Of a DNA stretch of 64,000 nucleotides, positions 5,067 through 41,779 are shown piece after piece. The notes below the pieces were generated by a model. That model had not been told where the DNA came from, did not search any database, and saw only the letters and a list, made by a program, of their open reading frames with translations. The stretch spans positions 224,001 through 288,000 of the forward strand of contig CAWBQK010000006.1 of NCBI GenBank assembly GCA_963791045.1, given 5' to 3'. The position numbers were made by a program, and so were the translations under genes. The DNA comes from Candidatus Latescibacterota bacterium (GTDB lineage: Bacteria > Krumholzibacteriota > Krumholzibacteriia > WVZY01). The stretch's first letter is position 1, and each line of letters begins with the position of its first letter.

Positions 5067-5139
5067 GCCGCGGCGGCCCTTTCTTCGACTGTCGATCCAA
5101 CCGCGCGTGTTCGTACTTGAGCACGCGCTTTCAGCGCGC

Positions 5140-7490
5140 TTATTTTGTCACCACCATTTTCCTCGTGTCGGTGTAGCCGGGTGTGATGAGTCGGTAGAAG
5201 TACACACCCGAGGATACCCGTGCGCCGCTGTCATCACGCGCGTCCCACGTGACCGATTTCTCTCCCGGCGCCTCGACTTCATTCTTGAGTGACCGGACGA
5301 GCCGACCGTTTACATCGTACACGACGAGCGATACGTGTCCGCCGCCCGGCGGGACATCATAACGAATAACCGTCGACGGATTGAAGGGGTTCGGCGCGTT
5401 CTGATAGAGTGCGAACTTTTCGGGGACGATTGGATCCGGCTCGACTCCGGTGCCCGGGCTTGTCGGCGAAATCCGGATCGAGTACCAACCTTTTTTGTAG
5501 AGTTTGTTCGCAAAAACGACAAGGCCGTACCAATCGGTCGTTTGGGGAATGAAGATGCCGGTTTCCGAATCGCCGAGCTCCCATTGGGCCGACAAGCGAT
5601 CCGCAAAGTAGTTGCCGTTGCCCGGGTTTCTGAACAGCGAGAGCCGCATATCGGCAAGTCCGCTTCTGGTGAAACCGATTTGATAGGTCTTTCCCGCTTC
5701 CAGATACACATCCCAGATCTTGATGGAGCCGCAACCGCTGGTGTGATCGTAGACTCCCTCAACGGTCGTGTCGTACGGAAACTGTTCGGTGTCGTTGTCC
5801 GTCTGAACCGAGAACGTCTCCCATTGGTCGCCCTCAGTTACATGGGCGTAATAAGTTCCCGTCGCGCTGTGGTTGAAATCACCAACAATGAAAGACGCGC
5901 CGCCAAATGCCGGGGAGTCCGCGAGAAGGGTGCCTTTGCCGTCACACTGTGTGCGGAGAGCGATGCGTTTTAAGTCGCCCTCTGCGGGAAGCACGCCGAT
6001 CACCGACCAGTAGTCGGCGCTCTGTGCGAACGAGAAGTCGTTCGGCCAGCGCGACGTGTACACGCATTCCATTGATGTCAAAGGCATGCAGTCGTTGAGT
6101 TCCTGGACCTGGATCTCGTATCCGCTCGTGTGATCTTTTCGGCTGTCCGCAAACACGACGAGTCCGAAAAAGTCGCTTTGCGGCGCTGTGTAGTTGTGGG
6201 TGCCGCTGGTTGCCAATTCAAACTCCGCACTGACCCTTCCACCCCAGTATTCGCCCGTGCCAGGGTTCTTGTACAGGGAGAGATGTGGATCCTTCTGGCC
6301 CCATTTATTGAAGAAAAACTCGTATTCACGACCCGCGTCGAGATACAAGTCCCAGATCTTGACCCCATTGCACTCGCTGGTGGTTCCCGACATCGTGCCG
6401 ATTTCGTTTCTCGGGGGATAGAACAAATCGGCGCCGCCATCCCACTGGACGGTGAAGTCGAGATCGTACTCGGTGCTCTGCAAGTACGGATACCGGTCGG
6501 CGGGCAGCGGTGCGCTGCCAAAGTCACCGACGACGAGTTCAGTCTGGCCGACTCCCGCGTTGTACGATGAGCCGAGTTGGTTGCCCAGTGCGTCACAGGC
6601 GTCGATCAGGTAGAGGCTCATATCATCTAGTGTGTCGGGAGTTACGGCGAAGGCCGTCCAATAATCCCGTTCCTGGTAAAAGTGAAAATTGTTGGCGGGG
6701 CCGTCGGCAACGGTGTAGAGCTTGTGGTTGGTACAGACGGCATGGTCCATCGGAATGCAGTCGGAGAGTTTTTCGATGTTGATGGAGTAATACCATGATG
6801 ACGACGTGTTCCACGGCACGAACACAACAAAGCCATACCAGTCGCTGGCGGGGGCTGTGTAGAAGTGCCCCGTACTCTGTGGTGATGATATTTCGAATTC
6901 GCTCGCGTCTCGGCCCGCCCAGTAGTCGCCCGTCGAGGGGTTGCGAAAGATCGCCACGTTGGCTGTCAAACCTATCTGGGGGGCGAATGAGAACATGTAC
7001 TCGGCGCCTTCTTCGAGAAAAACATCATAGATCTGGATCATGTTGCAGCCCGCGCCCGTTCCGCCAAGCCAACCGCTTACCCACGGGCCGACGGGAAGTA
7101 TGTCGCCGCCTTGATTCCAATAGACATCATATGCGACATCTCCGCCGTATGTGACTTGCGGGTAATAAGTCCCGATCGCATTGTGATTGAAATCCCCGAC
7201 GATAAAGTCGGTGCCGTCCGTTCCCGTTGAAGATGCCAGCAGCGAACCCGTTCCGCACGAAGGGTACAAATAGATATCCTTGTCATCCGGACTCGACGGG
7301 ACCACTCCCACGACCGCCCAGTAGTGGTAGAACTGATTTATCGAGTAGTCCTGGGGTATGGTGGTCTCGGACTGGCAAACGCCTTCGGTCAGTGCGGTCA
7401 CTGGGCGTCGCGCCGCCTGCCCAGAGCAGGGCGCGCGAGAAAACCGGCCACAAAAACAATTGAGCGGATGGACTTGTTCGAAGCTGTCAT
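5140..7490 (-). CDS. Array protein A: secreted protein with three ~220-aa repeats and a FlgD-Ig/T9SS-like C-terminal tail
   Basis: GGAGCCCGAG-ATG at 7490 (MTASNKSIRSIVFVAGFL), with an indel in the signal region. Repeats contain DFIVGDFNH, IWDVYLEAG and DWYGLVVF. Tail is LYQNAPNPFNPSTVIRY...SGVYFYRL...RKMVVTK. Confidence 0.8.
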
Positions 7491-7524
7491 CTCGGGCTCC
7501 TTCAGGGGGTTCCCCTTTCAAACT

Positions 7525-9889
7525 CTACTTCATCAAAACCAGTTTCCGTGTCTCGCGGAAGCCCGGTGTTTCAATGCTGTAAAAATACACACCTGACGCG
7601 ACCCGGTTTCCGCTGTTGTCGTCGCCGTGCCATGTGACTGATTTCTCTCCAGGCGAGAGGCTCTCGCTGACAAGCGTTTTGACGAGCCGGCCGTTTACAT
7701 CGAATATTCTTAAACTCACGTTGGCGCCCCCTGACGGAACGTCATATCGGATCACTGTCGACGGGTTGAATGGGTTGGGGCTGTTCTGATAGAGCGCGAA
7801 CTGATCGGGGACGATGGGTTCCGGATCAACGCCGGTTCCAGTCCCGACCTGGTCGATTCGAATCGTGTAAGTGCCCGCGCCTTCCCGCTTGTTTGCAAAC
7901 GCGACGAGCCCGTACCAGTCACTCGCCGGAGGGGAATAGTTGAAGGTGGCATGGGCCGGGGTTTCCCATTCGCTGTTCGCTCTGCCCACCCAATAGTCGC
8001 CGATGCCGGGGTTATAGAAGAGAGCGATGTGAATATCTGATTGCCCGCTGCGTGTGAGTCCGATCTGGTAGGTTTCGCCGGCTTCCAGAAAAACATCCCA
8101 TACTTTCAGTTGGCGACAATCGATACCGAAGTTTCCGAGAGCTCCCTCAACCAATGTATTGAGCGGGAAAATATCTTCGAGTGCGTGAAATGCCACGGTC
8201 GGAATCGAATGAGTACAAGGCATCCGGATCTCCATACGTGATCCGGGCGTTGTACGTCCCCGCGGTAATGTGGTTGAAATCGCCGACGATGAAATCGGCG
8301 CCGTTTACATATCCTGACGTGGCAAGAAGCGTCCCTTCTCCATCGCACTCGGTGAATACATTGATATCTTTGTCATCTCCCTCGCTGGGGACGACTCCGA
8401 CTACGGCCCAGTATAGCCGGCGTCAAACGAAAAGTCCAGAGGGTAGCCAACCGACGTCACGCAGGATTCTGTAGGCAGCGGAGTGCAGTCGTCGTAGCGC
8501 TCGATCTCAACCGAATAGGTGCCCGAGCCGTTTATTGCCTTGCCGAATATGACAAGGCCGAAGACATCGCTTGCAGGGGCGGTGAACACGTAGCCCGTTA
8601 TGGGGTTCGAGACTCCCAATCGGCGTATGGACGTCCCCCCAGTACTCTGTGTCGCCGTTGAGATTCTGATAGAGAGCCACATGATGTTGGCGTCTCCTGT
8701 CTCCTCAAAATTGAGGCGGTATTCCATGCCGCCCTGGAGACCGAGGTCATATACATCAATGAGGTTGCAGCCCGTAGAGGTGGTGTTGATCACGCCGGAT
8801 ACGCCGGGCGCACCCACGGGACAGTAATTGGGACCATCCTTCCACTGGACCAGGTAATTTTGGTCGGCGCTCCCGTCGAAGACAACGGGGTAAACCGTGT
8901 GTGGGAACGCGTGGTTGAGATCGCCCGCGATGATCATGGTGTTGCCGGGAAAGGCGGGTGCCGACACTGCGAGATCCGTTCCGCCTTTGTCACATTCACT
9001 GTACAGATACAACCCTTTGGTGTCCGTGGGCTGGCCGATCATCGCCATTGCCACCCAGGACGTCGAAGTCGGTGCTAATCTCGTAGTCCGTCGCCGGGCC
9101 ACCCCCTGGCGAATATATTGGGGTGTAAAAACAATCGCCCGGATCGAGCGCTATGCAGTCGTTGAGTTTTTCGATTGTGATGCGAGTCGCTGCGCCATAG
9201 GATGCTACCTCGCTTGGAAAGGCGACAAGCCCATACCAGTCCGTTGCCGGGGGGACGTAGACGAACGCCGCCGTGTTTTCGTCGATCTTCCATTCACTGT
9301 CGCCGCGTCCTGCCCAATAGTCTGAAGTGCCGGGGTTTCTGAAGAGTGAGAGAAACACATCGGGGTGGGCACCGACTTCCATTTCAACTCTGTACTCAAC
9401 TCCTTCCTCGAGAAAGATATCCCAGATGCGGACGAGATTGCACGGCGAGGGGCTGCCTCCCGTCGTTACCCAGAAACATGTGCTTATGGGGAAGATCTCC
9501 CCGCCGGTTACCCATTCGACCGTGTATAGATCGGTTTCGGTGCCGAAGACAGTTGTCGGGTAGTAAGTGCCCACGGTGTTGTGGTTGAAATCTCCGACGA
9601 TGAAGTCGGTGCCGCTGATTTGTGTCGATGAGGCCAGCACGTCTCCCGCATTGCACTGTGTGTAAAGATAGATGTCCTTGTCGTCGGTGGCGTCCGGCGT
9701 CACGGCGACGACAGTCCAGTACAGCGAGGATTGATTGAATGACCAGTATCTGCCGTTACCTACCGTATCGACGCATGCTTCTGATGTGAGCGGTCTGCAG
9801 GCGTGTGTGTCACCAACGACGCACATGGCGGGAATGAAGAATCCAAGCAGAATAACGATTGAACAAATGCACCTGTGTGAGACTTTCAT
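7525..9889 (-). CDS. Array protein B: paralogue of A (frameshifted into three ORFs)
   Basis: ORFs 8996-9889, 8401-9102 and 7525-8235 tile the same three-repeat plus tail architecture. Signal peptide MKVSHRCICSIVILLGFF. Confidence 0.75.
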
Positions 9890-9959
9890 TTCGGGCTCCT
9901 CCGTGAGGGGTGCCCGTGCGTCGAATGTTAACGCTCGAGTCGGCGCGCGGGTCGTTGGA

Positions 9960-10424
9960 CTACTTGTTCCGGCTCTCCAGGTATTCTTCCAGTTTGGCTC
10001 GTTCCTGGGGTGTCAGTCCTTCGATGCCCGGCGCTCGTGGGATGTTTTCGATGGTAGAAAACGCCTCGACTTTTTCCGGCGCGCTCCGTTGTATCTGGTG
10101 CGGACGGTTTTTCGATTGTGCGAGTTTGTCACGCTCGGCCTGTGTCATTCCGGCTTTTGGGTCCCTTTTTATGATCGGCTCGGAGACAGTTCCAACATTG
10201 ATGAATTCCATCGGAACCGATCGCGTTGTCACGGGCAACAGGCGTTTTTCCTTCTCGAGGGCGGTCAAGACATAGGGCTTCATCTCAGGCCCGATCGTGG
10301 ACACCGCGGGCAGTTTTACCGAGTTATCCCCGGCGTAGCCCAGGCCTATCCATATGATCGCCGGAACGAGAAGCACCGCGACGACGATTGTCGCGATAAT
10401 CAATTGTTGTTTGTTGTTCCGCAT
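9960..10424 (-). CDS. Small N-terminally anchored or secreted hypothetical protein (array partner, copy 1)
   Basis: RBS AAGGGG, basic N-terminus plus hydrophobic helix, and a clear paralogue at 12909-13376. Confidence 0.75.
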   Translation of the reverse strand: MRNNKQQLIIATIVVAVLLVPAIIWIGLGYAGDNSVKLPAVSTIGPEMKPYVLTALEKEKRLLPVTTRSVPMEFINVGTVSEPIIKRDPKAGMTQAERDKLAQSKNRPHQIQRSAPEKVEAFSTIENIPRAPGIEGLTPQERAKLEEYLESRNK

Positions 10425-10473
10425 TTCAGAATCCCCTTACGTCTGTGAAACAATCGCTACTCCCAATTCGGAT

Positions 10474-12838
10474 TTATTTCATCAAAACCAGTTTCCGGGT
10501 TTCGCGGAATCCCGGAGTTTCAATACTGTAGAAATACACACCGGAAGCGACCCGGTTTCCGCGGTCGTCGTCGCCGTGCCAGGTGGCTGATTTCTCCCCG
10601 GGAGAGAGAGTCTCACTGACAAGAGTTTTGACGAGCCGGCCGTTCACATCGAATATTCTCAAGCTCACACTGGCGCCCCCGGCAGGGACATCATAGCGGA
10701 TCACCGTCGACGGGTTGAATGGATTTGGCGTGTTCTGATAGAGCGCGAACTGATCGGGGACGAGGGGTTCCGGATCAACGCCGGTTCCAGTCCCGACATG
10801 GTCGATTCGAATCGTGTAGGTGCCCGCGCCTTCCCGCTTGTTTGCAAAAGCGACGAGCCCGTACCAGTCGCTCGCCGGTGGGGAATAGTTGAAGGTGGAA
10901 TGAGCCGGGGTTTCCCATTCGCTGTTCGCCCTGCCCACCCAATAGGCGCCGTTGCCGGGATTATGGAAGAGAGCGACGTGAATGTCTGATTGCCCGCTGC
11001 GCGTGAGTCCGATCTGGTAGGCTTCGCCGGCTTCCAGAAAAACATCCCATATTCTAAGCTGGCGACAGTCGATACCGAAGTTTCCCAGCGCTCCCTCAAC
11101 CATAGTATTGAGCGGAAACATGTCCTCGGGCGCGGAAATGCCACGGTCGGAATCGAACGAGTACAAAGCATCCGGATCTCCAAACAGGATCCGGGCGTTG
11201 TACGTCCCCCCGGCAACGTGGTTGAAATCGCCGACGACAAAATCGGCGCCAAAGAGATACTGCGAGCCCGTCAGTTGAGTCCCTTCTCCATCACATCCCG
11301 TATAAACGTGAATATCTTTGTCATCTCCCTCGCTGGGGACGACTCCGACGGCCGCCCAATATCCGCCGGCGTCAAACGAAAAGTCCAGGGGGTAGCCAAC
11401 CGACGTCACACAGGATTCTGTGGGCAGCGGAGTGCAGTCATCGTAGCGCTCGATCTCAAGTGAATAGGTACTCGATCCATCAATTTCATCGCCGAACACG
11501 ACAAGACCATAAATATCGGTGACCGGGGCGGTGAAAACGTAGCTATCCGTGGGATCCGAGAGTTCCCACGCACTATTGTCGCGTCCCTGCCAATACTCCG
11601 CATTGGCAGAGTTGACAAAAAGCGCCACTTGAACGTCGGCGTTGCCGCCTTCCATGAACTTGACGCGATAGTCGACGCCGGCATCGAGTGCAAGATCGTA
11701 GATATCGATAATATCGGTGTCTGTGGTTGTCGTGTTTATGGTCCCAAAAACTCCCGGCGCACCGACGGGAAGTTCGACGGGTCCTTCCGTCCATTGGAAC
11801 ATGTAGTCTGCGCCGACGTCACCGCACCCAATAGTAGGGTAGACGGTGGTTGTTGACGCGTGGTGGAAATCGCCCACAATAACTTCCGTAATTTCCGCGT
11901 AGCTGTTGTTCGACTGGGCTAGCTGCGTTCCTCCCTTGTCACATTCGGTATAGAGGGTCCAAGCACTTGTCGTCCACGTATTGACAGGTCACTGCCATCG
12001 CCATCCAGGTTGACGTAATGGGGGTGATGGCGTAGTCCGTTGCCGGGCCGCTCGCGACCGAATAGAGATGTGTGATTGCACAAACATCGGGCTCAAGCGA
12101 TATGCAGTCGTTTAGTTCCTCGAACCTTACTCCGACCGGCGCCCAAGTAGGCATCGGTTCGTCGGAAAACGCGACAACACCGTACCAATCGGTTGCCGGA
12201 GGAACATATATAAACGGCGGGGTGTCTCCATCGATTTCCCATTCGCTTTCATTTCGCCCGCCCAAGAACTCCGTACTGCCGGGGTTTCTGAAAAGTGAGA
12301 GAAACCCGTAGGGAGGACCCATCGCAATGAAGTCAATACGGTATTCAACGTCTTGCTCGAGATATACGTCCCAGATCCTGACGATAGGACATGCCGCGCC
12401 GGGGTATCCCAGGTTACTGTTTCCAAAAACACTAATGGGAAGGATATCTCCGCCGGTCACCCACTCGAGGGTATACGGATCGGTTTGGCTTCCGTATGAG
12501 GTTTCCGGATAGAAGGTGCCCGCGGCGTTGTGGTTGAAGTCGCCGACAATGAAATCGGTGCCGCTGGTTCCCGTCGAAGTGGCCAGTATGGTCCCTGATG
12601 CGCAGTTTGAATAGAGGGCAATGTCTTTGTCATCGGTTGGTTGCGGCATCACGGCGACGACCGTCCAGAACGCCGCGATCTGGGAGAATGAGAAGTCGCT
12701 GAATACCCCAACTGTGTCGACACAGACTTCCGATGTGAGCGGTCGGCACGGGCGCTTCGTCGCCCGCGATGAACGTCGGGGAATAAGAAATCCAAAGCAG
12801 AATAACGGTAAAAAGATGGATTTGTGTGAGATTTTCAT
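10474..12838 (-). CDS. Array protein C: paralogue of A (frameshifted near 11950)
   Basis: ORFs 11939-12838 and 10474-11877 with GGAGCCCGAG-ATG start. Three repeats and the tail ...RKLVLMK. Confidence 0.78.
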
Positions 12839-12908
12839 CTCGGGCTCCTCCGTGGTGTGCCCGTGCGTCGATACTGTTAACGCTTGGGTCGGCGCGCTGG
12901 TCGTCGGA

Positions 12909-13376
12909 TTACTTGTTCTGGTTTTTCATGTATGTTTTGAGTTTGGCCCGTTCCTGTGGCGTAAGTCCTTCGACGCCGCGTGCCCGCGGGATATTCTCAA
13001 TTGTCGAAAACGGTTCCGCTTTTTCCGGTGTCCACAGTTGTTTTTCGTGAGGCCTGGTCTTCCCCTGTGCGAGTTTATCACGATCGGCCTGTGTCAAGCC
13101 GATGTTGCGGCCGCTTTTCGTGCCTGGAGTTGCGATCGTCCCAATATTCGCGGGGTCCATCGGAACCGATTTCGTTGTTACGGGCAACAGGCGTTTTTCC
13201 TTCTCGAGGGCGGTCAAGACATAGGGCTTCATCTCGGGCTCGATGGTTGAAACCGCGGGAAGTTTCACCGAATTTGGATCCCCCGCGTAGCCCAAACCTA
13301 TCCATATGATCGCAGGAACGAGAAGGACCGCGGCGACGACCGTCGCAATCATCAACCGTTGTTTTTTATTCCGAAT
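12909..13376 (-). CDS. Small N-terminally anchored or secreted hypothetical protein (array partner, copy 2)
   Basis: Shares SVKLPAVSTI.PEMKPYVLTALEKEKRLLPVTT and FSTIENIPRA.G.EGLTPQERAKL with copy 1. The codon homologous to the copy-1 start reads ATT (13376). Confidence 0.75.
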   Translation of the reverse strand: MRNKKQRLMIATVVAAVLLVPAIIWIGLGYAGDPNSVKLPAVSTIEPEMKPYVLTALEKEKRLLPVTTKSVPMDPANIGTIATPGTKSGRNIGLTQADRDKLAQGKTRPHEKQLWTPEKAEPFSTIENIPRARGVEGLTPQERAKLKTYMKNQNK

Positions 13377-13424
13377 TTCAGATTCCCCTTGCGTCAGGAC
13401 TCAATCGTTTCTCATAAATTGAAT

Positions 13425-15836
13425 TTACTTCATCAAAACCAGTTTCCGGGTTTCGCGGAAACCCGGCGTTTCAATACTGTAGAAATACACTCCCGACGCG
13501 ACGCGGTTTCCGCGGGCATCGTCGCCGTGCCAGGTGGATGATTTCTCCCCGGGGGAGAGCGCTTCATTGACCAGCGTTTTACGAGTCGGCCGTTCACGTC
13601 GAAGATTCTCAATTGAACGTGAGCGCCGCCCGCGGGGACGTCATATCGAATGACGGTCGATGGATTGAACGGGTTCGGTGTGTTCTGATAGAGAGCGAAC
13701 TTGTCGGGCGCAGCGGGGTCGGGATCGACGCCCGTTCCCACACTTGTCGGAGATATACGGATTGTATAGTTGCCCCATTTTTCACGTTTGTTTGCGAACG
13801 CAACGATTCCGTACCAGTCGGTCACCGGCGGCGTATAGTCGAACGTGGTCTGGGCCGGAGTTTCCCATACGGCGCTTCCTCTACCCACCCAGTAGTCGCC
13901 GCTCCCCGGATTGTGGAAAAGCGCGACCCAGATGTCGTTGGTCCCACCTCTGGTGAGGCCAACCTGGTACGTTTCTCCCGCCTCGAGATAGACATCCCAG
14001 ATTTTGATATGGTCACATTCAGTGCCGAAATCTCCAAAAAAGCCCTCGACCACCGTGTCGTGCGGGAACATGTCTTCGGAGGGAGAATTGCCGCGGTCGG
14101 TGTCGATCGTAAAGGGTTCGTTTGTGTCTCCGTATGTGACTCGCGCGTGATACGCCCCCGGGGCGACATGATTGAAGTCTCCGATGACAAAATCGGCGCC
14201 TTCGATATACCCAGATGCGGCTAGTAGCGTTCCTTCACCATCACACTCAGTGAACACACGGATGTCCTTGTCGTCGCCGTCTCCGGGGGTGACGCCGACC
14301 ACCGCCCAGTACCCGTTCGCGTCAAATGAGAAATCATAGGGATGATTGTCGATCCAACTGCACGCCCCCGATGGTTCGAGATAGCAGTCGTTGTAGACCT
14401 CGATAGTGAGACCGTATGTGCCGGTGCCGCCGGTGATGTAGTTGCCCATGCCGTTCCCGAACACGACGAGGCCATAAACGTCGGATGCCGGAGCGGTGAA
14501 CACATGGCCGGCCGTCGGGTCGGTGAGTTCCCACAGGCTCTGATACCGATCCGTCCAGAATTCGCCGCTGCCGGAGTTTTGGAAGAGTGCCACATGGATG
14601 TCGGCGTCCCCCGTCTCCCCAAAGGTGACCCTGTACTGGGTTCCTGCGAAGAGCTCAAGATCGTAAACCTCGACAACGTTGCCCCCCTCGCCCAGAGTGT
14701 TTATTTCGCTTGCTATGCCGGGGGCGCCGATCGGAAGAATGCTGGGACTCTGTGTCCACTCGATGGTGAAATTCTCCGAGATTGTCCCCAGGTCGATTCT
14801 GGGGTGAACGGTATAGGGATCGGCGTGATTGAAATCTCCGACGATAATTTCGGTCCGTCCATAGTACCCCGACGCCCGCGTAGGACTGGGCAAGGAGCGA
14901 TCCGTTCTCGTCGCATTCAGTCCGAACCTTCAAGTTTTCTGGTCGGACGATTGAGGCGCGACCACTATCGCCATCCAGGAAGATGCCGTGGGAGCGACGG
15001 AGAAGTCCGTTAAGGGACCATCATTGACCGAATAGCGCGATCCTGTTCTGCACACGTCGGGGTCAAGGAATATGCAGTCGTCCAGTTTTTCGAATATGAC
15101 GCCCGCCGGATTGAGGATGGTTTCTACCTTGTCCGGAACCAGGGTTACGCCGTACCAGTCGGTGGCGGGCGGGGTGTAGATAAATGGAGCGGCAAAGCCG
15201 TCGATTTCCCACTCGCTGTCGTCGCGCCCGCCCCAGAAGTCCGAAGTGCCGGGATTTCGAAAAAGGGAGAGAAACAATTTTGGAAAGTACTCATCCATTC
15301 CACAGAATCACACGGTAATCGAAACCCGTTTCGAGATACGCATCCCAAACTCTGACGAGATCGCAGGTCGGTCCGTCGTCACCGGTGGTGGCGGGGTTGT
15401 AATTGCTGATCGCGAGGATGTGCCCGCCTCTGACCCAGTCGATATGGTAAGGGTCGGTTTCGGTGCCGTAATGAGTCGTCACGTAGTACGTGCCCAACGT
15501 GTTGTGGTTGAAATCTCCAATAATAAAGTCGGTGCCGTTGGTGCCATTTGATGAGGCGAGGGGCGTTCCCGACGCGCAGTTCGGGAAAAGCATGATGTCT
15601 TTGTCGTCGGCGGGGTCGGGCGTCACCGCGATGATCGTCCAGAATGGCACGGTCTGATTGAATGAGAAGTATCTGCCATTGCCGACTGTGTCGACGCAGA
15701 CTTCAGAGGTGAGCGGTCGGCACGGTTGTGCCTGGATTTCGGCCGTTGATAACACCAGAAGACAAAGTATACACACAGAGACGATGATCGCCCGGGCGAT
15801 TGCCCATTGTTCGATTCCGTTGGATCGATTTTCCAT
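13425..15836 (-). CDS. Array protein D: paralogue of A, first gene of the array (frameshifted)
   Basis: ORFs 15291-15836, 14930-15298 and 13433-14893. The tail shifts frame near 13570 and ends RKLVLMK-TAA at 13425. Signal peptide ...VCILCLLVLSTAEIQA. Confidence 0.75.
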
Positions 15837-33466: not shown

Positions 33467-35875
33467 TTATTTGACGAGCACCATTTTTTGCGTGAGCAGC
33501 TGCTTGCCCGCATTCAAACGACAGAAATAAACACCCGATCCTACCGCTACGCCGAGGCCGTCGCGGCCGTCCCACGTAAACGACTTGAACCCGCCGTCCA
33601 TTTCACCATCGGCGATCTGACGGACGAGCTTGCCCTGCGCGTCGAAGACCGAGAGAGCGACGTGTCCGCGCTCGGGCAGAACGAACGAGATGGTCGTCGT
33701 CGGGTTGAAGGGGTTCGGGTAGTTCGGATTGAGAACCAGCGACATCGCGTTCACGGTGACCGAAACCGGCTGCGACATTACTTCCGACCCGTCATCGAGA
33801 ACGACGGAGAGCGTATAAAGATACTCGGCGCCGGGATCGACCGACGTGTCTTTGTATCCGGCCGCACTCAACGGAATGAGCGCCGAAGAATTGACGACGG
33901 TTCTGCCCGTGCCCGCGTCACGGTAAATTCGAATTCCGTCGACGGCGTCGTCCGAAGCAATGTCCCAGGTCAACTCGACGGCCCCGTCAGCGGCGCGGGC
34001 GTCGAACATCGTGATGAATGTTGGTGTCGGCGGCGGATAGAACTGGAGCATGGTGAAGCCCGCCTCTTCGTCCGCCACGTAAACGTGATCGGTCTCGGAC
34101 TGGATTCCCCATGCCTTTCCGCCCGTGTCGAAGAAGCCCACATAGAGCGGATTCGAAGGATCGGCGGCGTAATAGGCTTTGACGCCGTCCTCGGCCAGGG
34201 CGGCGAAAATATAGTTGCCGGTCACGGTGACGTCATACACATTGTCAGGGCCCGTGAACTCGCCGACAAAAGATTCGCCCCACGGATCGACAATCACGAG
34301 TCCTCCATATCCGTCCGCAATGGCGACATTCCCGTCGAGAAATTCCGCGTCCACAGACCATCCACTCGTGTCGTAAAACCACGTCTCGGTGGGGCTGGAT
34401 GGGGTCGATACATCAATCACACGGAGACCCGCATCGCCGTCGGCGACAAACACATAGTCCTCCGCAAACTCGACGCCACGCGCGTCGCCCGGCGTGTCGT
34501 AAAATCCAACTTCAACGGGCGCCGTAGGCGTCGATATGTCGATGACACGAAGGCCGGCCGAGCCGTCTGCGACAAACACGTAATCTCCCGATGCCGCGGC
34601 GTCGTATGCGGCGCCTGGCGTGTCGTATCTTCCGATCTCACTCGGCGTCGTTGGATCCGACGCATCGATGATCGCCAGGCCCTGATAGCGGTCCGAGACG
34701 AGTACAAAGTTTTCGCCCCACATCACCGCCTCGACATGGCCGATTGTGTCGTAAGTGCCGATCGATACGGGGTTGGCTGGGTCCTCGATGCTCAAGAACC
34801 GGATTCCGCCATTGTGCTGCGCGAGCACGGCGACTTCATCTTTGACGTCGACGTCATAGGTGAAGTCCACCGCGGGGATGCCTCCGAGCCAGGTTGGCAT
34901 TGTAGGCATCGTCAAAGTGAGCGCATAGACACCGTCTTTCCTCATCCCACAATAAAGCATGTCGGCTTCTTTGACGAGCGCGGCAGTGGCGAGTCCCGTT
35001 GTGAACTCACCGGCGTAGGTCGGGCTCGACGGCGTTGAAATGTCGACGACAATCATGCCGTCTCCCGGGGTCGCGAGATAAGCGTAATCGCCTTCGACCT
35101 GGACATCGTACGCAGTGATCGAGCCGGCGCCGTAGTTGCCCACTTCGGTTGGTTTCCCAATTGCAGGGATCTCGATGATGACGAGACCGTTACTGCCGTC
35201 TGCCACGAAAGCATGGATGCCCTGAACGTCAACGTCGTAAGCCACATTGCCGGTGTCATAGAAACCGATTTCCGTGGGAGTCGCCGGATTGGAGACATCA
35301 ATAATTCTAAGGCCGCTATAGCCATCCGCGACATAAGCAACGTCGCCCTCGACGTACACGCCGTTCGATGCGCTCGGTGTATTGTAGGAGCCCACTTCTT
35401 TGGGACTCGCGGGGTTTTTTAAATCGATAATACGAAGTCCGTCTTCGGCGTTGGCGATATAGGCATAGCCATCGTCGGAATAAACCCCGCGGGATTCCTT
35501 CGCCATGAAATATGAGCCAACGACACTTGGACTACCCGGGGCCGATACATCCACGACCACAAGTCCGTCATAAACGCATGCGACGCAGGCGTAGTCGCCC
35601 TCCACCGACACGCCCCTCACGGGTGACGAGAGGGTGATGTTGGCGAGTTCGCTCGGGGTCGACGGTTTGAAATAATTCTGGATGCTTAAACACGCGCCAT
35701 CGCCCGCAAACACAGTGGTGCCGACAGCGTCGACCGCGATACAGGGACCGTGGGCCCAGCGTCCCAATTCGCGCAAGTTCCAGTAGTCACCGGTTTCCGC
35801 CGCCGATGTGGTCGGCATGATCGTAAAAGCCGAAGCAACAATTAACAGAGAAACAATCCAGTAGCGCAGAGCCAT
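33467..35875 (-). CDS. LVIVD-repeat beta-propeller protein with a FlgD-Ig/T9SS-like tail
   Basis: Many ~41-aa repeats 'YAYVADG..GLRIIDVSNP..P.E.G.YDT', a signal peptide and the tail LNPNYPNPFNPTTTI...QKMVLVK. Confidence 0.9.
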   Translation of the reverse strand: MALRYWIVSLLIVASAFTIMPTTSAAETGDYWNLRELGRWAHGPCIAVDAVGTTVFAGDGACLSIQNYFKPSTPSELANITLSSPVRGVSVEGDYACVACVYDGLVVVDVSAPGSPSVVGSYFMAKESRGVYSDDGYAYIANAEDGLRIIDLKNPASPKEVGSYNTPSASNGVYVEGDVAYVADGYSGLRIIDVSNPATPTEIGFYDTGNVAYDVDVQGIHAFVADGSNGLVIIEIPAIGKPTEVGNYGAGSITAYDVQVEGDYAYLATPGDGMIVVDISTPSSPTYAGEFTTGLATAALVKEADMLYCGMRKDGVYALTLTMPTMPTWLGGIPAVDFTYDVDVKDEVAVLAQHNGGIRFLSIEDPANPVSIGTYDTIGHVEAVMWGENFVLVSDRYQGLAIIDASDPTTPSEIGRYDTPGAAYDAAASGDYVFVADGSAGLRVIDISTPTAPVEVGFYDTPGDARGVEFAEDYVFVADGDAGLRVIDVSTPSSPTETWFYDTSGWSVDAEFLDGNVAIADGYGGLVIVDPWGESFVGEFTGPDNVYDVTVTGNYIFAALAEDGVKAYYAADPSNPLYVGFFDTGGKAWGIQSETDHVYVADEEAGFTMLQFYPPPTPTFITMFDARAADGAVELTWDIASDDAVDGIRIYRDAGTGRTVVNSSALIPLSAAGYKDTSVDPGAEYLYTLSVVLDDGSEVMSQPVSVTVNAMSLVLNPNYPNPFNPTTTISFVLPERGHVALSVFDAQGKLVRQIADGEMDGGFKSFTWDGRDGLGVAVGSGVYFCRLNAGKQLLTQKMVLVK

Positions 35876-36240
35876 GCTGCTCCCCCCTTGGGTTGTTGAT
35901 ACACAGCGAGGTATAAAGCCGGCGCGTAGCAAGGTGTGAACTGGTACAAGTGTGGGCTCAGCCATTCCGGGTCCGACCGCCGCTTCGGTTGGACACCGCT
36001 CCGCGATATGGCACTACAGCCGACGCCGTTTTGAAAGCAGTTGATCGATTGGAGATCGGGAAGAGCCTATCATATAACAAGTTGCAAGTCAACGTGCAGT
36101 TTGCCGCTCGCCGTCCAAATAAATCAAAAAAACACGTGACAAAATATGAATAGATGGTGTTTTGTTTTGTCTATGGTTGCAGCATCCGAGGCTCGGCACC
36201 TGGGATAGAACATAATCACTTGAAAAGAAGGTGGTATCAC

Positions 36241-37374: not shown

Positions 37375-39282
37375 CTATTTCGCCGCCATTTGTTTCTCGA
37401 GGATTTCCATCGTCTGTTTGGGGTTGATGACGAGGATCGATTTTTCCTCGGTCCCACGGCTCTCAGAGCCCTTTTTCATCAACTCGATTACATCTGCCGG
37501 CGCGAGCGACGGGTTGCGGGCGATAAGTTTTGCCGCAAGATTTGTCACGTTGGGGGCGGCCATCGACGTTCCGGACATTTTGATCCGGTTGCCGCCGGGC
37601 ACGTAACTCTCCACCTCAAAACCGTTCGAGTACAGTGCGACAGTCTTCCCGGAACTGGTAAAACTCGTCGGATCACCCGCCTGGTCGACGGCTCCGGCTA
37701 TCACCAGGTTGGGAAGCTCGAATGCCGGGGGGACAAAAAGATCGAACTCTACGTCATTGTCGGAATTGCCCGCGCCGCCGACAAACAGAATATCCGGCGC
37801 GCTGGTAATCGCGGCCAGGAGGTCGTCCCTGCCGATCTCAAATAGCTCGCGGGCCAACTCTCCTCGCTCCTCCGCCGATTCTCCGATGCCGTTGGCCTCG
37901 AGGTTGTATTCGATTTCACGCAGACCCAGCACCCAGCTCATGTTGACCACACGAACACCGTTGGCTTTGTAATAATCGATCGCGCTCTGGAACGATTTGC
38001 CAAACGCCACCATGAGTTCTTTGGTGTACGGCCTGGGAATGATGTGATGGTCGAACGCGATCCGCGCGACGAGAATCCGCGCGTACGGATTGCCCTCCAC
38101 TGCGATGCCCGCCACGTGGGTTCCGTGTGAATAATTCGCATAGAGGGTGAGATCTTCCACAAACGCGGTAACATCATCGGGCTCGAGCGTGCCCATCGCC
38201 TCGCGCACTTCCAGAGCTTCGGGGCTTTCAACCGACGCGGTGATGTCGGTGAAGCCCTTGATTCTGTCCTCGAGCAGTTGACGATCTTTTTCGCGTTCGC
38301 CGAGCGCGTAAAGCAACTCGGGCGTCGGATTTGCGTCGAGGTCGAATGCGATGCCGTTGACATCGTCGACAAAACCGTTGCCGTCGGTGTCTTTGCCGTC
38401 TTTCTTTTCCTTCGGGTTGACGAAGAGCCGGCCCTCGAACACCTCGACATCCACGCCGGCGTCCCAGATCGCCACGACGACGTTTTTATAATCATCATTC
38501 TCCGGGAGCGCGATGTCACGTGCAGCCCAGATGTCTTCTTTGACCACCTTGTGCGCGGCGATTTGCTCGCCAATCACCAACTGGATCTCGTCCCTGTAGG
38601 GAAGTATGTGGTGCATCGCCGAGCGAAACATGATGATTTGCGACGCCTGATCACCGCTCATGTGCCCCGCCGCTTCGACCGCCGGGTCGATATGACCCTG
38701 GATCACGCCGATGAGCAGGTTCTCGGTGAGGATTTGCATCTGACCGTTCATCGCTTCGAACGTGTCCCGGACGTCATCCCAGGGCATCGCAGCGATACGC
38801 GCCCTCATGTTCTCGAGCATTACCTTCTTGAACGCGTCGCTTGAGGGATCATTCTCCACTTGCAGCGCGTCGATATATGAAAGCCCAACGAGCCCCATGG
38901 CGATTTTCTGTGCTTCCTTCTCTTCGAGTTCGCGGGACATTTCGAGATATTTTACAGAGTTCTCGTAATCACACTCGAGGAAGTAGAGGATTTGAAGTGT
39001 GTCATAGTATCGCTGGAGCGCCGTAGTATCCTCGATGTCGCACGTCTCCAGGTCGACGAGCGCGTTGTGTTTAACCTGTTCGGCGAGTTGTTTGAACTCC
39101 TCTTCAGATGTGACAATCTCCGATGGCTTCGCCGTTACCTCATAGGTGTGACGGGGAAGATCGTCAATCGTTGCCACCTTGGTTTTTTCCCCCGCGGTTG
39201 CCGTCGACAACGGCACAAAAACCAAACAGAACACAACGAAAAGGAAGAAACACGGAACGATCGGTCGGCGGTAGGATAGCAT
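37375..39282 (-). CDS. Secreted S8 (subtilisin-like) serine peptidase
   Basis: AIWDAGVD, HGTHVAGI, AGNS and SGTSMAAP; signal peptide. Confidence 0.92.
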   Translation of the reverse strand: MLSYRRPIVPCFFLFVVFCLVFVPLSTATAGEKTKVATIDDLPRHTYEVTAKPSEIVTSEEEFKQLAEQVKHNALVDLETCDIEDTTALQRYYDTLQILYFLECDYENSVKYLEMSRELEEKEAQKIAMGLVGLSYIDALQVENDPSSDAFKKVMLENMRARIAAMPWDDVRDTFEAMNGQMQILTENLLIGVIQGHIDPAVEAAGHMSGDQASQIIMFRSAMHHILPYRDEIQLVIGEQIAAHKVVKEDIWAARDIALPENDDYKNVVVAIWDAGVDVEVFEGRLFVNPKEKKDGKDTDGNGFVDDVNGIAFDLDANPTPELLYALGEREKDRQLLEDRIKGFTDITASVESPEALEVREAMGTLEPDDVTAFVEDLTLYANYSHGTHVAGIAVEGNPYARILVARIAFDHHIIPRPYTKELMVAFGKSFQSAIDYYKANGVRVVNMSWVLGLREIEYNLEANGIGESAEERGELARELFEIGRDDLLAAITSAPDILFVGGAGNSDNDVEFDLFVPPAFELPNLVIAGAVDQAGDPTSFTSSGKTVALYSNGFEVESYVPGGNRIKMSGTSMAAPNVTNLAAKLIARNPSLAPADVIELMKKGSESRGTEEKSILVINPKQTMEILEKQMAAK

Positions 39283-39303: not shown

Positions 39304-41718
39304 CTATCGCAGCGGTGAATATTCGATGTTAATTTCATTCAAAAGTTCTTTAAAGCGGGGATTGTCCGCGATGGGCGCGAACGAACAATCCCGGTTCAGC
39401 GAAGACGTCTGATTCGCCTTCTGGTCGATCGCTCGTTCGAGCCATACGACCGCCGAATCGGCCTCACCGATCAACGCAAAAGAGCCGGCGATACCTATCG
39501 GTGACCCGTGCTTTTCGCTGTAGGCTTTTTTTAGCTGATCCAGCAGCAAGCGCTGGTACGCTTCGAAACCACCGGTTTCGAGCGCCTCGGCCAGCGCGCG
39601 AACATCATCTCTCTGCTCGGTGGTGGCCGCGACGAGTTCTCCATAACGGATGCCGCTTCTCGCTGCCTCTTCCAACTGTCCCGTACACAAGAGGGCAAAT
39701 TGCTTGGTGTAGTGCAGCGGCGGAAAGAGCGGCGACTCCGCGGCGACTTCGTCGAATTCGGCGAACCCGGCATCGATCTCGCCGTTGCGTACCAGGATCA
39801 AGCCTGCGACGACTCGGATGATGGGCGACAGCGGGTCGAGCTCCATCGCGATTCGGATTCGTGCGACGGCCTCGTCGAGGCGGCCAGTCGAAGACAGGAA
39901 CTCCGAGTACCACTGGTGCGCCGTCGCATAGTTCGGGCTGAGTTCGATCGCCCGCAAGAAATGCCGCTCCGCCGCATCCCAATCAAAATCGTATTCGTTG
40001 GCCACCGCGCCGAGCACCGCGTGAGCGGGCGCCAGTTTTTCGTCCAGTTCGATGGCCTTCTCGGCCATCTCCCGGGCTTTGGGATAATACCCCTCCACCC
40101 CGATATTTGTTCCCCACGTATTCAACACGGTGAACGTTTCGGCCAGCCCCGCGTAAGCCAGCGCGTAGCCGGGATCGATTTCGATGGCTTTCTCGAAAAG
40201 GTCGACCGCTTTGTACAGCGACTCCTCGGTACGTTTGTTCCAATTGAAACGCCCCTGCAAATAGAGCTCGTATGCCTCCCTGTCAACGACGGGGGAATCG
40301 GAGAGGCGCGTTTCATCATACTCTGTGAGTTCGACTTCGATCTGAGTGGCGACATCCATCGCGACACGGCGCTGAAGACCGAGCACATCAACCACTTCGC
40401 TCTGGTAGCTGTTGGCCCAAATATGCTCATCCGTCTTGCCATCGACCAGCTGGACCGTAATCCGAACCTGGTCGCCGGCCCACAAAACGGCCCCTTCGAT
40501 CACCTTCGCCACGCCGAGTTCATCGGCGATGGCCGTCATCGTCTTGTCCGAGTCTTTGTAGCGCATCACGGATGTTCGTGAAATCACCTTGAGCGCCTTT
40601 ATCTGCGCGAGCTGAGTGATGAGTTCCTCGGTCATGCCGTCGACAAAAAACTCGTTCCCCGGATCCTTTGAAAGATTTGTGAGGGGGAGCACCGCGATAG
40701 AGTTGTCGCGGGCCTCGGCAAGGGTTTTCGGCGTCGTCCGGTTCGTCGCCGGGTTGGGGCCGTTTTTTTGGGTCGTTTTTGGCCACAGCCAGACAATGAT
40801 TGCCGCGATAATGATGACAAGCGCAATTCCGACGCCGCGGCCGATTCTGTTGCGCCGTGGCTCGGTTACATCGATCGTGACGCTCGTCGGTGTCTCACTC
40901 GCGCCCTGGACCCCCAGGAAAACCTCGAGATCGGCCTGGAACGCGTCGACGTTCTGATAGCGGTCTTCGCGGTTCTTGGCGAGAGCCTTGTTTACGGCCC
41001 GTTCGAGTTTTTCGGGTACGTTCGGGTGTGCTTTAGATATGGGTTCGGGGTCTTCGTTGATGATCGAATAGATAACGGCCGCTTCGTGCTCGGCGACGAA
41101 AGGCGGACGGCCTGTGAGCATCTGATAGAGCACTACCCCGAGTGACCAGACATCGGAGCGTTGATCTGCTTTCTCCCCGCGAATCTGCTCGGGCGACATG
41201 TACGTCGCTGTTCCCACGGTCTTGCCCACTCTTGAAATCTTGGATTGGCTTCGAAGTTTGGCCAGCCCGAAATCAAGAAGCACCGGGCGGCCCTTTTCCG
41301 ACATCATGATGTTTGCCGGCTTGATGTCGCGATGGATGATGTCTTGCGAATGGGCTTCTTTGACGGCGCCGCAAAGCTCCATGGCTATGGCGGCGGCTCT
41401 GTTGGGTTCGAGCGGCTTGCCATCGAGGTGCTTTTCAAGATCGACGCCGGGGATGTACTCCATCGATATGAATGTCTGATCGTCCGCCGAATTAATCTCG
41501 TAAATCGTGCAGATATTGGGATGGTTTAGCGCGGCGGCCGTCTGCGCTTCATTGATAAACCGTTCCTTCTCGTCGTCCGACGCGAGAAGCTGCAGCGGGA
41601 GGAATTTGAGCGCGACGGTGCGCTTGAGCTTGGTGTCTTCGGCTTTGAAGACAATGCCCATTCCGCCTTCGCCGAGCTGCTCGACGATTTTGTAATGAGA
41701 TACGGTTCTTCCAATCAT
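39304..41718 (-). CDS. Hanks-type Ser/Thr kinase with TM, TolB-like and TPR domains
   Basis: LGEGGMG, VALK, HRDIKPANIM, DFGLA, YMSPEQ; TM helix; SIAVLPL.NLS; TPRs. Confidence 0.93.
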   Translation of the reverse strand: MIGRTVSHYKIVEQLGEGGMGIVFKAEDTKLKRTVALKFLPLQLLASDDEKERFINEAQTAAALNHPNICTIYEINSADDQTFISMEYIPGVDLEKHLDGKPLEPNRAAAIAMELCGAVKEAHSQDIIHRDIKPANIMMSEKGRPVLLDFGLAKLRSQSKISRVGKTVGTATYMSPEQIRGEKADQRSDVWSLGVVLYQMLTGRPPFVAEHEAAVIYSIINEDPEPISKAHPNVPEKLERAVNKALAKNREDRYQNVDAFQADLEVFLGVQGASETPTSVTIDVTEPRRNRIGRGVGIALVIIIAAIIVWLWPKTTQKNGPNPATNRTTPKTLAEARDNSIAVLPLTNLSKDPGNEFFVDGMTEELITQLAQIKALKVISRTSVMRYKDSDKTMTAIADELGVAKVIEGAVLWAGDQVRITVQLVDGKTDEHIWANSYQSEVVDVLGLQRRVAMDVATQIEVELTEYDETRLSDSPVVDREAYELYLQGRFNWNKRTEESLYKAVDLFEKAIEIDPGYALAYAGLAETFTVLNTWGTNIGVEGYYPKAREMAEKAIELDEKLAPAHAVLGAVANEYDFDWDAAERHFLRAIELSPNYATAHQWYSEFLSSTGRLDEAVARIRIAMELDPLSPIIRVVAGLILVRNGEIDAGFAEFDEVAAESPLFPPLHYTKQFALLCTGQLEEAARSGIRYGELVAATTEQRDDVRALAEALETGGFEAYQRLLLDQLKKAYSEKHGSPIGIAGSFALIGEADSAVVWLERAIDQKANQTSSLNRDCSFAPIADNPRFKELLNEINIEYSPLR

Positions 41719-41779
41719 TGTATCAAGATAGGCTGTGGGGCAATGGTTTGACAATACAAGAATTACGAAGCGCGGCGGG

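Follow-up and report, generated by a model that had tools for sequence, protein, structure and literature searches.

We analyzed a 64,000-nucleotide stretch of contig CAWBQK010000006.1 from a Candidatus Latescibacterota genome (positions 224,001 to 288,000 of the forward strand; hereafter, the window) and describe a 10.7-kb array within it, composed of four large paralogous genes (A to D), each encoding three repeats, and two copies of a small gene (small1 and small2). The large proteins are very probably cargo of the type IX secretion system (T9SS) made of PPC-like modules, and the small gene is a dedicated neighbor of the repeat genes. Taken as a whole, the data favor, with moderate confidence, an array of substrate-binding T9SS cargo, surface exposed or secreted, that is served by a dedicated periplasmic partner.

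Array layout and probable T9SS targeting

The source genome (3.66 Mb, 21 contigs, 80.9% complete, 5.8% contaminated) carries the array on the minus strand in the order D, small2, C, small1, B, A, between positions 15836 and 5140 of the window. The genes are co-oriented and are separated, in that order, by spacers of 56, 70, 49, 70, and 34 nt. A preliminary description, made from the letters of this DNA alone, had reported this order and the short spacers, and the coordinates confirm both. Each of the four large paralogs spans about 790 codons and encodes three repeats of roughly 215 aa, and the two small genes encode about 150 aa. The features are as follows.

5140..7490, minus strand: gene A; putative signal peptide from the ATG at 7490, followed by three double-sandwich repeats and a T9SS type A sorting domain
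6766..7410, minus strand: gene A repeat 1; profile match, E 2.3e-110
6097..6768, minus strand: gene A repeat 2; profile match, E 4.6e-108
5461..6099, minus strand: gene A repeat 3; the unit modeled singly
5149..5394, minus strand: gene A T9SS type A C-terminal sorting domain, residues 710-791; TIGR04183 39.1 bits, FlgD_ig 36.5 bits
7488..7500, minus strand: shared leader GGAGCCCGAGATG of gene A
7525..9889, minus strand: gene B; architecture as in A, five frame changes
9887..9899, minus strand: shared leader GGAGCCCGAAATG of gene B
9960..10424, minus strand: small1, 154 aa; basic N terminus, hydrophobic segment of about 21 residues, three 'TxG..P..(L/M)T..E..KL' units
10474..12838, minus strand: gene C; architecture as in A, one frame change
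12836..12848, minus strand: shared leader GGAGCCCGAGATG of gene C
12909..13376 (or from 13355), minus strand: small2; 73% identity to small1
13433..15836, minus strand: gene D; architecture as in A, four frame changes

A profile built from the three repeats of gene A matched 14 pieces in the frames of the window, with domain E values from 9e-13 to 2e-110. Because two units are split across two frames, these pieces represent 12 repeat units, the number given in the preliminary description. No copy of the repeat or of the small gene was found outside the array by tblastn across the 3.66-Mb genome. The leader GGAGCCCGA(G/A)ATG, previously said to be common to genes A, B, and C, does precede all three; four matches were obtained at no more than one mismatch, a count equaled by none of 100 shuffles. 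DNA identity in 150-column segments of the alignment ranges from 55 to 93% for B versus C and from 37 to 95% for the other paralog pairs, and is higher near the 3' end. An assembly duplication artifact, which the preliminary description had raised, is therefore ruled out as the source of the array, since the paralogs are too divergent.

The last 80 or so residues of the large proteins match FlgD_ig at 36 to 48 bits (cutoff, 27), and the T9SS type A sorting domain TIGR04183 is found at 39.1 bits in A and 33.1 bits in C (cutoff, 23). The tail of gene B scores 47.6 bits against FlgD_ig and 24.2 bits against Por_Secre_tail; gene D reaches only 15.2 bits against TIGR04183 because a frame change cuts its sorting domain. 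At the other end, all four proteins begin with basic residues and continue into a hydrophobic stretch of about 18 residues, as judged by eye, with this segment of A lying in a frame other than that of the body of the gene. The same genome encodes the PorU sortase (554.7 bits; cutoff, 420) and SprA (241 bits, or 543.6 bits when summed with neighboring stretches; cutoff, 200), and directly after PorU lies a PorV-like frame whose score, 115 bits, is under the cutoff of 250. The machinery search covered these three components. These results bear out the T9SS-like tail of the preliminary description and support export, as it proposed. A flagellar role for the FlgD-like tail was rejected: the match is confined to the Ig-like part, which overlaps the sorting domain, the full FlgD models score 15 to 25 bits against cutoffs of 230 to 383, and the gene neighbors are unrelated. 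Beyond the tail, no family in Pfam or NCBIfam was found at its curated cutoff in the large genes, and the scan detected no catalytic domain, in keeping with the earlier failure to see a catalytic motif.

The tail of A matches 87 further places in the genome; with regard to targeting, the four proteins thus belong to a large set of T9SS cargo and are not unusual within it. Textbook examples of T9SS type A cargo are the gingipains of Porphyromonas. The proteins of the window share with such cargo (TIGR04183/PF18962) a sorting domain above the cutoff, a putative N-terminal signal peptide judged by eye, and the presence of PorU and SprA, but they differ in having no enzyme domain and in having a dedicated small upstream gene. 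We know of no dedicated small upstream partner for T9SS type A cargo. A literature search for work naming both Latescibacteria and T9SS or type IX secretion found none; the module may still have been published elsewhere. Another T9SS cargo gene in the window (33467-35965, minus strand) encodes seven LVIVD repeats and a FlgD_ig/Por_Secre_tail tail.

Fold and relatives of the repeat module

An alignment of 47 repeats from the window and related loci shows C-x-P-L-x4-C, YW..V, DDKDI.LY, DF(I/V)VGDFNH, IWDV.LE.G, LFRNPG..YW.GR, and DWYG.V.F, so that all of the motifs quoted in the preliminary description are visible. The four cysteines that it called conserved are so only within a Latescibacterota-type clade and not outside it. 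The full-length AlphaFold2 model of A, built with 45 full-length homologs, is all beta (mean pLDDT, 89.3; pTM, 0.71). Repeat 3 of A, modeled singly with the 47 repeats, is predicted to form two beta-sandwiches (pLDDT, 95.6; pTM, 0.92).

This repeat model was compared with 48,161 solved chains using VIA-align, a scan independent of Foldseek, and the top matches fell mostly at model residues 100 to 213. They include collagen-binding domain 3b of ColG (1nqd; Z 10.8, root mean square deviation [rmsd] 2.6, 100 of 111 residues), the PPC domain of a Bacillus anthracis collagenase (5sv5; Z 10.8, rmsd 2.1, 102 of 105 residues), the tandem collagen-binding domain of ColG (5iku; Z 10.8), and the collagen-binding domain of ColH (3jqw; Z 9.7). 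The second half of the modeled repeat thus has the PPC/collagen-binding fold, as the preliminary description had supposed. When the whole repeat was submitted to Foldseek, the best match was the tandem 5iku (E 2.3e-8 over 236 columns, with a template modeling score of only 0.34 to 0.38), followed by other two-sandwich ectodomains, namely, SIDT1/2, PCPE-1 CUB1-CUB2, and HA70 D3. This alignment and a 'DKDIY' motif suggest that the first half may also be PPC-like; the motif is of the D-x-D-x-Y kind and resembles, without being aligned to them, residues named for PPC domains in PMC3327674. In Pfam, PPC was the commonest weak match, found in 5 of 47 repeats (best E, 0.0057) at repeat residues 124 to 202, in the second half.

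Several results count against a plain PPC assignment. None of the 47 repeats reached the Pfam PPC cutoff of 25.9 bits (best, 17.2 bits, with 31 repeats listed singly), Pfam PPC had no match in the genome itself at E 0.001, and the repeat profile matched no solved chain at E 1. By hhalign, the first half of the repeat shows no sequence likeness to the second half, the one covered by the PPC-fold match. GOLD domains, PliG, carbohydrate-binding modules, and the C-terminal jelly roll of the subtilisin Tk-SP also scored at Z 8 to 10, and the ligand is therefore not fixed by the fold alone. Failing the Pfam PPC sequence test, the modules are most aptly described as a new, divergent double module within the PPC fold class. 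The preliminary statement that the repeat could not be assigned to a named family holds at the Pfam cutoff.

Compared with the PPC domain (PF04151) and the s3a-s3b domains of ColG (5iku, 1nqd), the module shares the beta-sandwich fold of its second half (Z 10.8; rmsd, 2.1 to 2.6; 100 to 102 of 105 to 111 residues), the tandem arrangement, and, in relatives, a position C-terminal to secreted M4, S8, C25, and S1 peptidases. It differs in that the repeat sequence is under the Pfam cutoff in 47 of 47 cases and in that the unit is a fixed pair of unlike sandwiches present in two to five copies; the proteins of the window, moreover, have no peptidase domain and end in a T9SS sorting domain.

The repeat family comprises 96 clusters at E 0.001 in an indexed search, with well over 100 representatives at 50% identity, and its named members are labeled Candidatus Latescibacterota and Eisenbacteria. 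Besides the stand-alone form of three repeats and about 780 aa, a domain scan of 38 relative proteins revealed fusions of the module with Peptidase_M4 (P0025, whose close homolog P0023 shows a PepSY propeptide domain), Peptidase_S8 (P0079), Peptidase_C25 and its propeptide (P0126), and Trypsin (S1; P0147). The module also occurs with FG-GAP/ASPIC (P0165, P0197, P0200, and P0206) and with CARDB, and the fetched loci have one to five modules per gene. Judged from these domain contents, the distribution is that expected for an accessory binding module of secreted peptidases. The module is thus a shuffled accessory that is not specific to the array, and it is better classed as a divergent double PPC-like unit than as a wholly new kind. 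Among 151 sampled genomes of the phylum, the repeat was found in 34, including 3 other genomes of the same family (f1), the same 3 that carry the small gene. In the 30 repeat-bearing genomes outside f1, the frames containing the module run from 435 to 2,244 codons and are mostly longer than 1,000.

A maximum likelihood tree was built from 37 repeats, comprising the 7 unbroken repeats of the window and 3 from each of 10 loci; the 5 broken repeats of the window and the other loci were excluded. Within the Latescibacterota-type clade, repeats group by their position in the gene, with support of 100/97 for repeat 1, 95/86 for repeat 2, and 82/72 for repeat 3, and the triple architecture therefore predates the paralogs. 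Gene A joins orthologs from other genomes, and B, C, and D form clades of their own. In the Eisenbacteria-type genes of loci L001 and L022, repeats group by gene and not by position, a pattern that points to independent triplication or concerted evolution.

How the large proteins would work can be proposed from these features. Sec would export them to the periplasm, as predicted from the signal peptides read by eye, where each would fold into six sandwich domains, perhaps with disulfides. The sorting domain, given the machinery present, would then route the protein through SprA, and PorU would cleave the domain before surface attachment or release. Outside the cell, the modules would bind a polymeric substrate, most likely protein, as their fold and the fusion partners of their relatives suggest, and paralogy may diversify their specificity. 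We give substrate binding roughly even odds. According to PMC3327674, the M4 protease E495 has PPC domains that bind protein substrates and increase activity on proteins; in M9B collagenases, the PPC domains are collagen-binding domains (PMC6168687).

The large proteins might instead be structural, forming an S-layer-like coat or a surface spacer and binding no ligand. Six rigidly packed sandwich domains per protein (pTM, 0.71), surface targeting via the sorting domain, the presence of four paralogs, and the lack of a catalytic domain would all suit such a role. In relatives, however, the module sits behind four clans of peptidase, a position in which PPC-type domains are known as substrate binders (PMC3327674), and it is present in only three of nine genomes of the family, which would be unexpected for a core envelope layer. 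We therefore regard a structural role as improbable and retain substrate-binding cargo as the preferred reading.

The small gene and its pairing with the repeat genes

The small-protein family comprises 29 clusters. Its alignment shows a basic N terminus and a hydrophobic segment (about 21 residues) that contains a conserved P-A-x-I-W-x-G, followed by three short units, STIGPEM.PYVLT..E.EKL, GPY.GMT.AELDKLA, and STIE.VPR.PGIEGLTP.ERAKLE.YL. None of 26 members scored above a Pfam cutoff. Weak Pfam matches fell on the last unit, to DUF6576 in 18 of 26 members (best E, 7e-4) and to Cytochrom_C in 9 of 26; the DUF6576 match recurs at residues 133 to 148 of small1. The family profile had a single match among solved chains (E 0.74), and the homolog P0118 matched only unnamed clusters, with scores of 0.80 to 0.82. 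A search for longer, fused forms of the small protein found none, which is weak evidence. The 'LTxxExxKL' unit resembles the LTXXQ motif of the Spy/CpxP periplasmic chaperones, but none of the 26 members matched the models of that family at E ≤5.

The position of the small gene is highly regular. In 20 of 20 metagenome loci found via the small protein, a repeat gene starts about 90 to 165 nt downstream on the same strand, and two of these loci (L036 and L042) read small-large-small-large. Among 31 genome loci found via the large protein, tblastn with the small proteins of the window detected the small gene in 3, and an iterated profile raised this to 12 loci, each with a single copy immediately upstream of the repeat gene and none elsewhere in the flanks. 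These 12 include M4 fusions (L001, L002, L004, and L006) and S8 fusions (L009, L010, and L011). The pairing is seen in loci of both the Latescibacterota type and Eisenbacteria. In a tree of the small proteins, the groups correspond to the kind of large gene that lies downstream, with support of 97/95 for M4, 84/74 for S8, and 99/98 for the Latescibacterota type. Within the phylum sample, the small gene was found in 4 of 151 genomes (G000, G079, G120, and G126), all of family f1 (3 of 9 other f1 genomes), and these are exactly the f1 genomes that carry the repeat. These data establish the small gene as a dedicated neighbor of the repeat genes, in line with the dedicated small partner of the preliminary description. 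The cooccurrence is exact within f1 but does not extend to the 30 repeat-bearing genomes of other families, in which no small gene was found at E 1e-5. The relatives mostly carry single small-large pairs and not arrays. Overall, the observation itself was confirmed and its interpretation was partly supported.

Upstream of the repeat gene in 10 loci (L008, L012, L013, L015, L016, L017, L019, L022, L030, and L031), we observed signal-peptide-bearing, Pro/Ala-rich open reading frames (ORFs) of 140 to 260 aa, whose ends coincide with or fall close to the beginning of the repeat gene and which show, by eye, motifs like 'V.T.G' and 'L...KLE'. The small-protein profile misses these ORFs, and the unit profile gives that of L022 an E value of 0.005. 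They may be very divergent partners, to judge from the motifs.

Two observations speak against a general partnership: the iterated profile found no small gene in 19 of 31 genome loci, and A and D have none directly upstream. Both would be expected if the small gene were simply a cotranscribed neighbor, for example, a membrane or regulatory protein, that makes no contact with the large protein, and the small protein's lack of a matching family or fold would also allow this. However, the pairing is tight and old, being directly upstream and on the same strand in the 20 metagenome and 12 genome loci with no match elsewhere in the flanks; it spans both types of locus, the small-protein tree follows the type of the large gene, and the number of units follows the number of modules by eye. 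We consider a mere neighbor rather unlikely.

The partner reading would place the small protein, exported or membrane anchored and carrying three short helix-type units, in the periplasm, where it would act on the module, most likely by escorting or masking it ahead of export. We put forward the escort role tentatively. A more specific form of this proposal is a modular escort with one 'TxG..P..LTxxExxKL' unit per double-sandwich module of the cognate cargo, each unit binding and masking one module until export. By eye, three units accompany three modules in two Latescibacterota-type clades and in the Eisenbacteria M4 fusions, and two units accompany two modules in the S8-protease fusions; a unit profile (stretches of at least 17 bits) gave three units in 22 of 23 Latescibacterota-type small proteins. 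A stricter regular expression for the unit matched only six ORFs, all six of them upstream of repeat genes. Unit counts by regular expression in complete loci were too noisy to track module number by themselves, with (unit, module) pairs of (2,3) in six loci, (3,3) in four, (4,3) in three, and five other combinations once each. We regard the unit-per-module escort as rather unlikely.

PorP/SprF-type proteins are cargo-specific T9SS helpers, and AprI/Inh are small periplasmic inhibitors encoded beside secreted proteases. They resemble the present system in that a small gene is adjacent to and specific for one exported protein. The small protein described here would match neither: it is not a beta-barrel, belongs to no Pfam family above the cutoff in 26 of 26 members, and also accompanies protease-free cargo.

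Frame changes in the array and implications

Three-frame reading and DNA alignment of the paralogs revealed at least 11 single-base frame changes in the array, 1 in A, 5 in B, 1 in C, and 4 in D. Gene A is the sole large gene with an unbroken frame across repeats and tail: a 793-codon frame (5140-7521) covers them without interruption, and a frame change at about 7405-7440, just after the signal peptide, places the latter (ATG at 7490) in another frame. The changes in B lie at about 9075, 8683, 8625, 8415, and 8186, and that in C lies in a CCC run at 11956-11969. Those in D lie at about 15293-15303, at 14938 in GAAAAC, at 14862-14870 near GGGG, and at 13576-13580 in AAAA; an apparent in-frame stop at 14930-14932 sits between two compensating shifts. 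The start of small2 is also irregular. It has ATT at the position of the ATG of small1, with the same AAGGGGA ribosome-binding site at the same spacing, and the next candidate starts downstream are TTG at 13355 and ATG at 13352. Because homology to small1 reaches upstream to 13376, the start is the ATT, one of the downstream codons, or another consensus error.

Related contigs were collected from Logan, from three runs labeled marine sediment metagenome in two studies. At the frame-change sites of A and B and at 14938 in D, they show no indel, but their cover there is thin or absent, and the comparison is informative at four sites in C and D. Single-nucleotide indels were found at 11956, 13576/13580, 14862, and 15293, and at all four of these sites the indel runs in the frame-restoring direction. 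The indel at 11956 turns gene C into a single frame of 794 codons; in gene D, the three observed indels plus one inferred at 14938 yield a frame of 809 codons. For B versus C, the ratio of nonsynonymous to synonymous substitution rates (dN/dS) was 0.293 in the first 269 codons and 0.107 in the last 219; it is 0.163 for A versus C and 0.115 for B versus D, with dS saturated in both of the latter pairs. A comparison of C with D, in which a misplaced frame anchor gave 11 stops, was excluded. This finding indicates that purifying selection acts on the paralogs. In genomes of the same family, the large-gene frames are unbroken, at 728 to 896 codons.

These results bear on whether the array consists of decaying pseudogenes, with real frame breaks and proteins that the organism no longer produces. 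Against intact genes, the breaks are clustered, at least 11 within 10.7 kb. They are concentrated in the array, since the remainder of the window is tiled with long frames of up to 1,048 codons and the PorU and SprA frames are stop free over 1,370 and 1,790 codons, respectively. The ATT of small2 would also fit decay. Furthermore, the related contigs are mostly only 90 to 95% alike to the window, and for that reason true recent pseudogenes keep a share of the probability. However, all of the lesions are single-base indels, stops in the genes' own frames are found only after frame shifts, and the conserved motifs all continue in the shifted frames. The paralog dN/dS values of 0.11 to 0.29, the unbroken frames of the relatives, and the frame-restoring indels at four of four sites likewise disagree with decay, and we judge pseudogenes to be quite unlikely. 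Most likely, on these comparisons, the frame breaks are consensus errors in a paralogous, strain-variable region or very recent lesions.

In contigs of close relatives from all three runs, a D-like 3' end is followed by about 150 nt that include a D-like leader and then by a C-like body (junctions 12744/15733 and 15774/13412). Such joins leave no space for a small gene, a further point against the partner reading, and the composition of the array therefore differs among close relatives.

The surroundings of the array were also inspected. The flanking genes (flavin reductase, helicase, and Wzy_C-like) showed no functional link to it. Gene A and the flavin reductase gene are convergent, and their ends are separated by a GC-rich hairpin (5124-5138); a single related contig carries 11 additional letters at 5129. 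A look-up of RNA runs for this stretch returned none. A scan for promoters and terminators returned 10 promoter-like and 20 terminator-like sites, compared with 6.8 and 12.6 in shuffles, and none was decisive. Elsewhere in the window, a Peptidase_S8 gene (37375-39282) adjoins two genes for Ser/Thr protein kinases with TPR repeats (39304-41754 and 43158-46136), and 55949-58948 (minus strand) encodes a protein of 999 aa that combines four SdrD B-like domains with CarboxypepD_reg-like ones.

For annotation, the array calls for caution: the four large genes would be labeled pseudogenes in the assembly, yet the evidence favors intact genes. The module is a domain family missing from Pfam, a fixed pair of beta-sandwiches of which the second is, by its model, PPC-like. 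The small upstream gene would be the first dedicated partner of type A T9SS cargo known to us. If the unit-per-module proposal is true, the T9SS would have a cargo-specific, stoichiometric chaperone-and-cargo cassette common to two candidate phyla, and one-to-one binding of units to modules would provide a simple, testable model for the periplasmic handling of large multidomain T9SS cargo. The uncultured Latescibacterota and Eisenbacteria attach the module to at least four clans of peptidase and also use it alone, which bears on how sediment bacteria capture and degrade polymeric organic matter.

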